Below, piece by piece: positions 46,514-56,372 of a DNA stretch of 64,000 bases (within the stretch, counting starts at the first letter, position 1; each line of letters opens with the position of its first letter). This stretch comes from Octopus vulgaris (Eukaryota): NCBI GenBank assembly GCA_951406725.2, contig OX597815.1:38812001-38876000 (forward strand), given 5' to 3'. The translations under genes were made by a program, and so were the position numbers. Under the pieces are notes generated by a model, which saw nothing but the letters and a program-made list of their open reading frames with translations, was not told the DNA's origin and did not search any database.

Positions 46514-46883
46514 CAAGATAAATGAAAATATACGAAATAAAAAGTGATTACCTACGTACCATTGGTTTCATTTGTTAATATCTACGTATGCAAACACGCA
46601 GATATCTGCAAGATCGTCAGTGTAGTCTGTCGCTTACAAAATACAATTTTCAGAACTAGATACAGAACGCTCAACCGAAATCGAGCGTGAAAGTATTCTC
46701 TGTATATCCATGCTCGATTTAGGTTGAGTGTTCTGTATCTAGTTCTGGAAATTGTGTTTTGTAAGCAAACGACTATGCTGACGATCTTCAGATATCTGCC
46801 TGTTTGCATACGTAGATATTAACAAGTGAAACCAATGGCACGTAGGAAATCGTTCTTTATTTCTTATATTTTCATTTGTCTTG
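46514..46883. repeat. 370-bp fold-back (palindrome 1)
   Basis: ~175-bp arms, about 90% complementary by eye, ~20-nt loop near 46700. Confidence 0.92.
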
Positions 46884-46888
46884 TGAAC

Positions 46889-47383
46889 TTAATTTTAAAA
46901 AAATTTAATTCAATATTAATTCAATTTTAAAATATTTAGCCACTCTTCAGGTCAAAAAAATTACGTAAATAAATTTGGATATTCTAATAAAAACAGTAAA
47001 TATATAAATATATGTATATTAACTGTAAATAATTCAATAGAATTTAACAATAATAATGTAAAGCAAAAACATGACTTATCTTATTGACGAAAACCAGTTA
47101 AAAGAAATTTTAAACTTACAATCTAGCGTTTTACAACGCTTTATTGTAAGTTTAAAGTTTAAATTTTCTTTTAACTGGTTTTCATCAATATGATAAGTCA
47201 TGTTTTGCTTTACATTAATATTGTTAAATTTTAGTGAATTATTTACTGTTAATATACATGTATTTATATATTTATTGCTTTTATTATAATATCTAAATTC
47301 ATTTATGTTATTTTTTTACCTGAAGAGTGGCTGAATATTTTTTAATTGAATTAATATTGAATTTTTAAATTTTTAAAAATTAA
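46889..47383. repeat. ~495-bp AT-rich fold-back (palindrome 2)
   Basis: ~245-bp arms centred on agcgtt-ttac-aacgct at 47125-47140. Confidence 0.92.
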
Positions 47384-47445
47384 TTTTTTTTAAATCAAAT
47401 TTTAATCTTATCTATTATATTTAGTCATGAAACGCGCGTAGTCAA
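47315..47445 (+). ncRNA. Type I hammerhead motif with long AT-rich stem II
   Basis: tttac-CTGAAGA-gtggctgaatat...atatttagtcat-GAAAC-gcgc-GTA-gtcaa; the mirror arm (46951-46955) preserves ttgac for stem I. Confidence 0.75.
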
Positions 47446-47591
47446 TTTAATGTTTAATTTTTAGAATAATAATTATAAAATTTTTATTTAATTAATTTCC
47501 ATGTGATCATTATAGATAATATCTTGTCACTAACTAGATAGTGGTTTGTATATATATATATATATATATATATATATATATATATATATAC

Positions 47592-49360
47592 ATGGGTGAT
47601 TTCAAATTCTCCAACGTCAAATGGCACAAAGGTCTCATGCCCTCAGGAATGACTCATTGCAAGCAAGCACAGGTGGCATCCCTGCTCAACCTCACCAATG
47701 CCCTATTCATGAAGCAAGCTGTACTCAGACCAACTAGGGCGAATAGCATTTTGGATCTCTACTTCACGAACAATATGGACATCGTTCATGATGTGAAAGT
47801 GACGCCGACATTAGTCTCAGATCAAAACATAACAGAGCTGTCTATATTTGGGCCGAAAGTAACCAGAGACTAAAGGAAGCACCCGAAATCTCTCCAATGT
47901 GAACTTCCACAAAGCAGATTGGAAATCGATCCAAAAAGAGATTCTCAGACAGGACTGGCCGAAATGTCTCTCCACACCAGATATTGATATGAAACTAGAA
48001 TATTTCATGTCTGTTGTGCAAGCCATATGCTAGAAATATGTCCCAGAGTCCAAGGGTAAACAAATAGGAACGCGATTCCAAGGGAGAGGGAGACGACGGA
48101 CGAATGTTGCAGATCGACTCAACCAACATCCCAAAAGTAGCGGAAGGTCCTGCCTAAAAACAACACTGATGCAGATTGAAAAAAGACTGCAACGATCTTA
48201 TGTGAGGGAGAGAGCAGACAAAGAAGCCTGGGTTATAAAAAACATTAAGTCAAACCCAAAGGCCTTCTTTCAAACACGAAAGAAACAGCCTCAGTACGCT
48301 CTAAGATAGGACCTCTCTTCCAAAAGGATGTCTCCCTCAGAGGATCAATGAGGTACTGAATGGCCAGTTGAAAAATGTCTTTACCACCCTATTGGAACAC
48401 AGACAAGTGAACGAACCAGTTAACTTGTTTGTTTCTCACCTATAACCAGCGAGGCAGTTACGATAGAATACATCGACATTAGTGAAGAAGATATACTACT
48501 AGCCATAGATGAGGTGAACGCAAGCTTAACTGTTGGTCCTGATGGTTTCCCAGCAATCCTCCTCAAATCGTGTAAGCGTGCCCTGGCAAAAGCCCTCCAG
48601 ATTCTTTTCCAGAGCTTTCTTGCAAATGGCCAAGAAAGCTGAAGGAGGGAATAATATGCCCAATCCATAAAGGGGGAATCAGAGCAGATGCCAAAAACTA
48701 TAGTCACATCTTTCTGATTTCACACATCAGGAAAGTCATGGAACGGGTTTGGAAACCATTTGCATTCCTTGAGGAAAATAACATGCTGAGTGATACCCCG
48801 CATGGCTTCAACCAGGTAGGAGCTACCTGATTCAGCTCTTGCAACATTATGACTGGGTGTTGAGACTGTTACTCAACAACTCAAATGTGGACGTAATATA
48901 CCTTGATTTTGCAAAGGCTTTTGATAAAATGGATCATGGTATGATATGCTGCAAACTGCATAATATACATCTTGAAGATTCTGGAAGCAATTGGGCCAAA
49001 TTTTGGCATTGAAAGCTACACCAATACCAGAACGGGTCGACGCTGCATAGTGCTAAAGATGCCAGCAATGCCATCGCGCTTCAAGACCAGTTACTGCAAC
49101 AGCCTGGGTTTCAGAATACCACATTTTTTAATATTCTCCCAAAGAGCCTGAGGAACCAGCACAAAGTAGATGTAGGCGTTTTAAAATCAAGGCTGGACCT
49201 CTTCCTCTCGAGAATCCCAGATGAACCTACCTCACGGCAAGAGGTGAAAATGAGGGTAGCTATATCAAACTCCATTCTTCACCAAGTGTCACATATTTTA
49301 ATTGTAGTGAAGAAAAACGGCGGGGCATCAGTATGCCCGCAGATCTGCGCTGAAACTGCA
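47592..49360 (+). mobile_element. CR1-like LINE, internally deleted and decayed
   Basis: MGDF.. and PTRANSILDLYFTN (APE), GPDGFPAILLK, YLDFAKAFDKMDHG (RT), C-terminal [15 protein letters not shown]. Confidence 0.88.
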
Positions 49361-49839
49361 GAGAAAAAATATATGTATATATATATATATATATATATAT
49401 ATATATATATATGTATGTATGTATATGTATATATATATATATATATATATATATATATATATATATATATATATATATATATATATGTATATATATATAT
49501 ATATATATATATATATATATATATATATATATATATTGTGTGTGTGTGTGTGTGTGTGTGTGTGTGTGTGTGTGTGTTTATATATATATATAAAAATATA
49601 TATGTATGCATTTATGTATGTATATCAAGAAAACTCAAAGAGTTGCAGGCAACGCTAAGTGCTATGGAACTCTTGGTTCGATAGGGATACCGGTGAGGAG
49701 TGTAATATGGGTCTTGTATTAGTATGCATATTTGTATTAGACAAAATGATATAACAAAGCCAAGGCTGTGAGGAGTTTTCAGGACATTTATAAGGAAAGG
49801 GACATAAGCAAAATTATTTTTTCACAAAATAATATCAAT

Positions 49840-54122: not shown

Positions 54123-54298
54123 TGTATTTCTTTACTAACCACAAGGGGCTAAACACAGAAGGGACAAACAAGGACAGGCGAACGGATTAAGACGATTACA
54201 TCGACCCCAGTGCGTAACTGGTACTTAATTTATCGACCCCGAAAGGATGAAAGGCAAAGTCGACCTCGGCGGAATTTGAACTCAGAACATAACGGCAG
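54123..54298 (-). mobile_element. SINE (family of 54722), 5'-truncated
   Basis: Reverse complement of 54780-54955. Confidence 0.88.
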
Positions 54299-54721
54299 AG
54301 TGTTTGTATACGTACATGTGTGTGCGTGTGTGTGTATGTATGTATGTATGTAGGTAGGTAGGTAGGTATGTATGTTTATATGTGCGTGTCCCCGAATATG
54401 TAACTGTGGATATAGTTTATTTGTAGGTATGTGTCTATAGTGGGTATATATGTATACATTTATATATATATATATATATATATATATATATATATATATA
54501 TATATATATGCATATATGCGTATATATGTATGCCTTTATATATGTGTATATATTTATGCATTTATAAATGTGCATATATGTATACTTTTGTATATATGTA
54601 TATATGTATATATGTGCACATTTGTATATGTATATATATGTGTGCATATACATATGTGTATATATATACACATTTCTATATGTCTATATACGTATGCATT
54701 TATATATGAATATACGTGCAT

Positions 54722-55135
54722 AAGGCGGCGAGCTGGCAGAAACGTTAGTACGCCGGGTGAAATGCGTAGCCGTATTTTGTCTGCCGTTACGTTCTGAGTT
54801 CAAATTCCGCCGAGGTCGACTTTGCCTTTCATCCTTTCGGGGTCGATAAATTAAGTACCAGTTACGCACTGGGATCGATATAATCGACTTAATCCGTTGG
54901 CCTGCCCTTGTTTGTCCTCTCTGTGTTTAGCCCCTTGTGGGTAGTAAAGAAATAGATATTTCGTCTGCCGTTACGTTCTGTTCAAATTCCATCGAGGTCG
55001 ACTTTGCCATTCATCCTTTCGGGATCAATTAAATAAGTACCAGTTACGCACTGGGGTCGAGGTAATCGACTTAATTCCTTTGAACTTGTTTGTCCCTTCT
55101 GTGTTTAGCCCCCTGTGGGCAATAAAGAAATAAAA
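54722..55135 (+). mobile_element. tRNA-related SINE followed by a tandem partial copy
   Basis: A-box-like AGCTGGCAGAAACG, B box GAGTTCAAATTCC, core GTCGACTTTGCCTTTCATCC; second unit begins near 54955. Confidence 0.88.
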
Positions 55136-55404
55136 CAATATATATATATATATATATATATATATATATATGTATGCCTCTATATATGTGTATATATGTA
55201 CGCATTTATATATGTGTATATATGTACGCATCTATATATGTGGATATATGTATGCATCTATATATGTGTATACATGTAAGCATTTGTATTTGTGTATATA
55301 TGTATGCAATTATAAGTGTACGCATTAATGCATTTATATATGTGTATATATGTATGCGTTTATATGTGTGTATATATGTGTATGTTTGTGTGTATGTTTG
55401 TGTG

Positions 55405-55600
55405 TCTGTGTTTGTCCCCCTAGCATTGCTTGACAACCGATGCTGGTATGTTTACGTCCTCGTCACTTAGCGGTTCGGCAAAAGAGACCGATAGAATAAG
55501 TACTGGGCTTACAAAGAATAAGTCCCGGGGTCGATTTGCTCGACTAAAGGCGGTGCTCCAGCATGGCCGCAGTCAAATGGCTGAAACAAGTAAAAGAGAG
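55405..55600 (+). mobile_element. SINE 3' part ending in taaaagag tail
   Basis: Four dispersed copies in window (20028, 41563, 55405, 59560). Confidence 0.82.
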
Positions 55601-55779
55601 AAAGATATATATATATATTCCTTTTTTATATATCACCACTCGTGTTCGACATCTCCTTTTTTTAAATATATATATATATATATATATGTGTGTGTACGCT
55701 TTTATATATGCGTATATTTGTACGCATTTCTATATGTGTATATATGTATGCATTTATGCAAGTCTATATATGTAAGCAT

Positions 55780-56372
55780 TTAAATAAAAATTCATTATAA
55801 TTATGAGTATAATTATAATTATGGTTCAGCAAAAGATTTGGTTCACCACATACCGAAATTTAGAAATAGCAGCCAAAATTAGTTATTTCTCTACCATAAG
55901 AAAATTTCCTAGACAATAATACTCAACAACTCGATAACACACATGGGTAGTTGAGGGAGAATACGAGATCTCATTCGTCTGTTTGAATTCGGAGATACTG
56001 GTCATTGGATGTAGTTTGTCTGATGTCGCTAGGTCAGATAAGGTATGCTCAATTTTTTACAGTGCCCTCAAATTTAAAATCTTGAAATACTGTACTGAAG
56101 AGCGAGAATGATAGAATAGAAATGTGTTTTTTTACATTTTTCATAACTATCTAACTCCGAAACGCGTCTACAGTTAATCTAAGCCGAGTGAATTCGTTAT
56201 TTTTTCTCTTTGCCTACGTGGGTTGTTGAGTATTGTTGTCTGGGAGATTTTATTATGGTAGAGAAATAGCTAGTTTTGGCTGCTATTTCTAAATTTCGGT
56301 ATGTGGTGAACCAAATCTTTTGCTGAACCATAATTATAATTATATTCATAATTATAATGAATTTTTATTTAA
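55780..56372 (+). mobile_element. 593-bp fold-back element with 153-bp inverted arms enclosing an intact hammerhead
   Basis: Arms 55780-55932 and 56220-56372 differ at 8 positions by my count; further G-U-rich pairing inside. Confidence 0.9.
56089..56174 (+). ncRNA. Type I hammerhead ribozyme, intact core, short palindromic stem III
   Basis: actgta-CTGAAGA-g(c)gag..gatag..ctatc..ctcc-GAAAC-gc-GTC-tacagt; predicted cleavage after C56168. Confidence 0.88.

Follow-up and report, generated by a model that had tools for sequence, protein, structure and literature searches.

Three fold-back elements in a 64,000-nucleotide stretch of the Octopus vulgaris genome (contig OX597815.1, positions 38,812,001 to 38,876,000; hereafter the window) have arms that differ mostly at sites which would still pair as G-U in plus-strand RNA. 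An earlier note, made from the sequence by eye, took the plus strand for the ribozyme strand and proposed selection on an RNA duplex of one polarity, strand-specific deamination, or A-to-I editing fixed by reverse transcription. The question is whether this G-U excess reflects such a process or is an accident of a few hairpins.

Arm differences and their polarity

By alignment of the arms on the plus strand, G-U, A-C and transversion differences were 7, 0 and 1 for the 55780 element, 10, 3 and 6 for palindrome 46514, and 6, 3 and 13 for palindrome 46889 (positions in Table 1). The G-U counts of the earlier note were reproduced, as was the 7 vs 0 at 55780; its two A-C differences in each palindrome became three. 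The seventh G-U pair of the 55780 element, 55779/56373, is situated one base beyond the ends which that note had given. Pooled, the three fold-backs showed a G-U:A-C ratio of 23:6 (binomial p = 0.0023). These elements had been picked out of nine fold-backs detected in the window by scan; the six that were not picked gave 35:32, and all nine gave 57:39 (p = 0.08). The plus strand formed the more stable fold in all three, which was attributed to the G-U excess itself. Contigs from independent DNA runs were identical to the window over 55700-55837, 55853-55981 and 56315-56407 (zero differences), indicating that the left-arm T bases of the 55780 element are not assembly errors.

Table 1. Positions of the features discussed, numbered within the window
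Feature	Positions	Strand	Remarks
Family B repeat, left arm of palindrome 46514	46493..46689	-	hammerhead-like core: first half 46620, GAAA/helix III 46569, both -
Family B repeat, right arm of palindrome 46514	46709..46883	+	hammerhead-like motif at 46778, 46828
Family C inverted piece, left arm of palindrome 46889	46886..47117	-	first half of core only (46950, -)
Family C sense piece	47129..47520	+	hammerhead-like motif ~47315-47445; continues towards (TA)n tract
Family A inverted piece, left arm of 55780 element	55779..55930	-	six C>T on +, five within 55879-55917
Family A sense piece of 55780 element	55929..56460	+	loop, right arm 56222-56373, then 3' tail
Family A relative (subfamily; outgroup of the earlier note)	39703..39880	-	
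Tc1 element, control	7184..8809	-	TIR pair: 1 G-U, 2 A-C

The polarity of the arm changes was set by the family majority. All seven G-U pairs of the 55780 element were C>T on the plus strand, none of them at a CpG site, so that the preference for C>T over A>G expressed earlier was borne out at 7/7. In palindrome 46514 the G-U pairs comprised eight C>T and two A>G changes on the plus strand; in palindrome 46889 all six were A>G, accompanied by seven A>T changes in a sequence with an A/T content of 82%. The relative near 39710 had been said to carry C at some of these sites. It does so at three of the six in-arm G-U sites (55883, 55906 and 55917); the remaining three show A, A and a gap. Other copies of its subfamily bear their own hammerhead-like motif.

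The assignment of the plus strand as the ribozyme strand held for the 55780 element and palindrome 46889 but failed for palindrome 46514, both of whose arms contain the core. Of its two copies of the motif, the left one on the minus strand is the more intact and extends further 3', and the U of the cleavage triplet is changed to C at 46839 in the right arm. With the 3'-reaching arm used to set the orientation, the three fold-backs together gave 16:13, with palindrome 46514 pointing in the opposite direction (3:10).

Repeat families, unique breakpoints and a Penelope-like layout

The assembly was searched (2.8 Gb, 227 contigs), and it was found that each fold-back is a member of a different, unrelated dispersed repeat family with a hammerhead motif (A, B and C, with 2477, 1307 and 446 first-look candidates, respectively). 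Copies occurred solo, in partial tandem, or with an adjoining inverted piece. The layout was antisense|sense in 142 of the 146 other oriented fold-backs; the four tail-to-tail ones were excluded from the counts. Inner breakpoints were distinct at 70/71, 36/36, 31/31 and 7/7 loci, window loci included. Because breakpoints almost never recur, the hairpins are not inherited units; each was likely made once, at insertion, and is likely not a transposing unit. The 3' ends fell into two modes in families A and B and in the A subfamily, one arm being tailed; in the 55780 element the 3' tail is only on the side of the sense piece.

These features suggested Penelope-like elements (PLEs), for which an adjacent inverted 5'-truncated copy and a one-sided tail are known features according to the consulted parts of PMC8557442. 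Both the partial-tandem and inverted 5'-truncated arrangement and the tail at one end only were found here. PLEs with a C-terminal endonuclease, pseudo-LTRs and hammerhead motifs, as described in portions of PMC8557442 and PMC11167929, share with the present families the partial tandems, the inverted 5'-truncated neighbour copy, the one-ended tail, (TA)n neighbours and a type I hammerhead-like motif; family C alone also shares a GIY-YIG-like ORF end upstream. The tail is ~60-130 nt here, compared with 30-40 bp in the parts of PMC8557442 consulted. The co-oriented ORF end of family C was observed upstream in seven other loci, and matched Pfam GIY-YIG in one of the three ORFs scanned (E = 0.005, below cut-off); no RT ORF was found linked to these endonuclease-like ends. 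For families A and B no linked ORF was found within ~1.5 kb. A Pfam search of seven window ORFs returned the Tc1 transposase as the sole named product. A PLE ORF fragment to the left of palindrome 46514 was considered as a partner and set aside as a separate family, since 0/14 of its other loci were with family A, B or C. It is likely that the three families are of PLE origin; they add new members to a kind of structure already described.

A core with helix I/III pairing was visible in the motif and conserved across 42-83 copies; in the 55780 element it occupies the loop (core 56095, GAAA/helix III 56159). Judged from sequence, the families carry a type I hammerhead-like motif, a putative ribozyme. 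An Rfam scan of the window gave no match at the gathering score, a hammerhead descriptor search found the window copy of family C and missed those of A and B, and minimum-energy folds of the motif did not produce the full hammerhead shape. In a de novo hammerhead scan, the copies of other families were too few for an independent test. The repeats resemble non-LTR retrozymes, so far as the available parts of PMC7229834 and bioRxiv 10.64898/2026.07.22.740005 describe them, in being A/T-rich and dispersed with some tandem copies, and in having a type I hammerhead-like motif with weak helix III and a palindromic tetraloop. They differ in unit size (~600 nt or more, against 150-450 bp in those accounts) and in occurring mostly as single, truncated or inverted copies instead of in arrays. 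The tandem monomers of 150-450 bp expected of non-LTR retrozymes were not seen, the units being of this larger size and only 33/290 pieces being in tandem only.

Counts across the genome and in controls

Loci were sampled via best BLAST hits and exact motifs and do not represent a random draw; for one family A motif with 762 matches, they were taken among the first 100 matches listed. The final arm-against-arm count comprised 142 loci, in which 525 of 1221 arm differences (43%) were transversions. Four polarity definitions were applied: the sole-ribozyme strand (motif on one strand only), the longer arm, the 3'-reaching (tail-bearing) arm and the 5'-reaching arm.

On the sole-ribozyme strand, the G-U:A-C ratio was 126:111 in 41 loci (locus-flip p = 0.34), made up of 92:63 in discovery and 34:48 in replication. 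The genome-wide asymmetry claimed for this strand was absent, which is the outcome the earlier note had named as speaking against it. By the longer arm, 389:298 was obtained in 135 loci (locus-flip p = 0.0009), with 149:131 in the replication sets. In the first discovery signal (209:143 by the longer arm, 88:60 by the ribozyme strand) some pieces had been counted twice; with one pair per piece the longer-arm signal shrank to 161:120, and this definition, the best one in discovery, was not replicated in 35 new pairs (99:99). By the 3'-reaching arm the ratio was 318:241 (57%) in 119 loci (locus-flip p = 0.002), with the same lean in all three sets (183:143, 98:75 and 37:23) and 135:98 (p = 0.046) in the replication sets alone. 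By the 5'-reaching arm it was 262:264 in 98 loci (locus-flip p = 0.97). A G-U share of 79% was ruled out under the ribozyme-strand and 3'-arm definitions. Of the strand-linked skew proposed earlier there may remain a weak one by the tail-bearing arm, and none was seen on the ribozyme strand. No overdispersion of per-locus polarity was detected among loci (P = 0.34 and P = 0.10).

The controls were largely symmetric. Read on the transposase strand, 29 Tc1 TIR pairs gave 53:60 after removal of 11 columns of shared differences, so that the equal asymmetry in DNA-transposon TIRs that had been raised as a possible refutation was not seen; one of the 29 (L130) had a raw count of 7:0. In 134 solo pieces, the odds ratio at non-CpG sites was 1.0 both for C>T vs G>A and for A>G vs T>C. 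At CpG sites of the solo pieces, C>T exceeded G>A with an odds ratio of 1.59 (p = 0.053), for which no explanation was found and which sits uneasily with a chance account. In 34 tandem pairs, where a fold-back is impossible, the equivalent classes showed the same lean without reaching significance (93:76; isolated differences only, 52:45).

The residual skew and what it may mean

Taken together, the fold-backs are likely an ordinary PLE structure and the skew is largely cherry-picked. The explanation that we consider probable is a PLE-type inverted insertion and subsequent neutral decay, the 79% G-U share being a chance extreme among many hairpins; the G-U excess is likely chance on top of an arm-linked skew that is weak at most. 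Head-to-head repeat pairs would arise at insertion by Penelope-like retrotransposition. A single event would yield both arms: an insert anchored at its 3' end and a 5'-truncated copy in inverted orientation, the latter perhaps primed from the opposite target strand or made by fold-back synthesis. Differences between the arms would then accumulate independently through ordinary DNA mutation. Slightly more changes in the shorter arm on a G/T-rich sense strand, together with ascertainment, may contribute a few points of G-U.

An unlikely but not negligible alternative is that the inverted, shorter arm is more mutagenic at insertion, through wobble misincorporation by the PLE RT or deamination of a single-stranded intermediate. 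It predicts additional G>A and T>C changes in that arm in the family sense, ~57% G-U overall and occasional clusters like that at 55780. Comparison of the shorter with the tail-bearing arm did show G>A at 120 vs 85 and T>C at 77 vs 48, while C>T (55 vs 61) and A>G (47 vs 58) were about equal, and the 55-57% G-U lean is due to these extra G>A and T>C changes. Load times composition predicts a G-U share of only 0.508, which, like the agreement of the three sets by the 3'-reaching arm and the pooled longer-arm count, does not favour chance alone. The lean persisted in a second pipeline (223:182; isolated differences only, 146:108, p = 0.02), and a G>A excess of three or more occurred in the shorter arm at eight loci and in the opposite arm at one, among 119. 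Furthermore, a PLE protein was reported, in the part of PMC11167929 consulted, to cut and extend both target strands in vitro, which would give the antisense|sense layout. However, the shorter arm also carried more transversions (221 vs 170), a pattern that choosing pieces by their best BLAST hit would itself produce. The lean was absent from one subfamily (65:68), slight in the youngest loci (24:21 and 71:65) and reversed in palindrome 46514; it survived removal of five lopsided loci and was lost on removal of ten (p = 0.07). The same lean, not significant, in tandem pairs and the lack of a clear sequence context beyond CpG also argue against a mutagenic arm. Since the 3'-reaching-arm definition was chosen among four and came to be preferred once the replication data were known, the residual skew was treated as a lead.

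With five C>T in 39 nt, the segment 55879-55917 of the 55780 element was more extreme than any other among 404 pieces; simulation predicted 0.125 G>A clusters of this kind. Though predicted by a mutagenic arm and awkward for chance, it represents a single clustered event or else an extreme that drew attention. Gene conversion from a paralogue was rejected, as 0/89 other copies covering the five sites had more than two of the five changes.

A regional plus-strand C>T/A>G bias from host transcription or replication would suit the lean on the contig plus strand that the three picked elements share in both arms, and is very improbable. It was largely refuted by local controls: non-arm parts of the same elements gave 0:8 and 0:4, the window Tc1 gave 8:12, 36 other fold-backs within 100 kb gave 212:229, and 33 SINE pieces were symmetric, with C>T 7 vs G>A 7 in 44-58 kb.

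Selection for an RNA duplex between the arms, on the ribozyme strand, agrees with the 23:6 count and the more stable plus-strand folds of the picked elements, and is hardly credible given the genome-wide counts, which refute the claimed effect size. A selected duplex should show a one-strand G-U excess across copies, few transversions and a shared hairpin; none of these was found, and palindrome 46514 has no single ribozyme strand.

Fixation by reverse transcription of A-to-I edits in a double-stranded transcript is equally far-fetched. A transcribed fold-back would form a long duplex, as in A-to-I edited inverted repeat pairs (e.g. PMC526178); the A>G changes of palindrome 46889 and two of palindrome 46514 are of the right kind, and 0/8 A>G sites have a 5' G neighbour, though the sequence is very A/T-rich. 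Unlike in those pairs, the genomic differences here are mostly C>T (15/23 G-U pairs, including all at 55780), and palindrome 46889 has its A>T changes and high A/T content. The A>G excess on the sense strand typical of ADAR-hypermutated retroelements was not found: solo copies showed none, and A>G in the tail-bearing arm (58/4778 sites) was near the other arm's rate.

Preferring insertion followed by neutral decay, we regard it as rather doubtful that PLE insertion leaves a mutational scar, with the inverted arm made with wobble-type errors or deaminated while single-stranded. If it did, the order in which the two arms were made, and the strand of the second, could be read from fold-backs, which would give a genomic view of the PLE inversion step, termed undefined in the consulted part of PMC8557442. 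A literature search of partial coverage returned no report of G-U or strand asymmetry in the inverted arms of PLEs. As it stands the result is minor: a G-U count that is striking in hand-picked hairpins fails to hold more widely, and three PLE-type families with hammerhead motifs are added to the annotation of this genome. Should the weak arm-linked skew prove real, it would be informative about the way PLEs form inverted ends and could be checked in any large genome rich in fold-backs.

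Inverted arrangements and the C>T cluster

In the left arm of the family A fold-back at 55780, five C>T differences on one strand were found within 39 nt (55879-55917), none of them at CpG, and this cluster was the top extreme of the 404 family pieces compared. At 39703-39936, it was observed that an antisense family A relative is followed directly by a short tail piece in sense orientation; this arrangement is an inversion, with its two parts not overlapping.

By eye, the left arm of the inverted pair flanking a microsatellite carries a hammerhead-like core, and a motif resembling this core was observed near 53560 (about 53560-53600). 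For the Tc1 element, at least 39 further near full-length copies were found among the matches listed, with 92-96% identity.

Features of the window and of L361, a family C locus
Feature	Position	Strand	Details
Decayed PLE-like RT/endonuclease fragment	601-1044	-	By eye and tblastn
Inverted pair flanking microsatellite	5195-5557		G-U 10, A-C 4
Tc1 element	7184-8809	-	TIRs ~230 bp; open transposase frame of 305 aa
Decayed PLE ORF fragment, third family	45647-46482	-	Adjoins left end of 46493-47520
Decayed PLE-like RT/endonuclease fragment	49808-50580	+	By eye and tblastn
Endonuclease-like ORF	L361:2509-3000		Upstream of family C

Coding fragments

Pfam gave no name to the two PLE-like RT/endonuclease fragments. 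The endonuclease-like ORF at L361 matched GIY-YIG with a weak score; its match to the Mononegavirales capping domain was above the Pfam cut-off (E=2e-6) and was presumed to be spurious.

Junction of fold-backs and the family A motif matches

The fold-backs of the unrelated families B and C lie at most 3 bases apart (46493-47520), and their left end meets the third-family PLE ORF fragment, an arrangement that would stem either from nested insertions or from a single multi-template event. On another contig of the same genome, a 32-nt family A motif had six exact matches (G000:C8:106834859-106959419). These matches, all on the same strand and spaced 18-36 kb apart, suggest a tandem segmental duplication.
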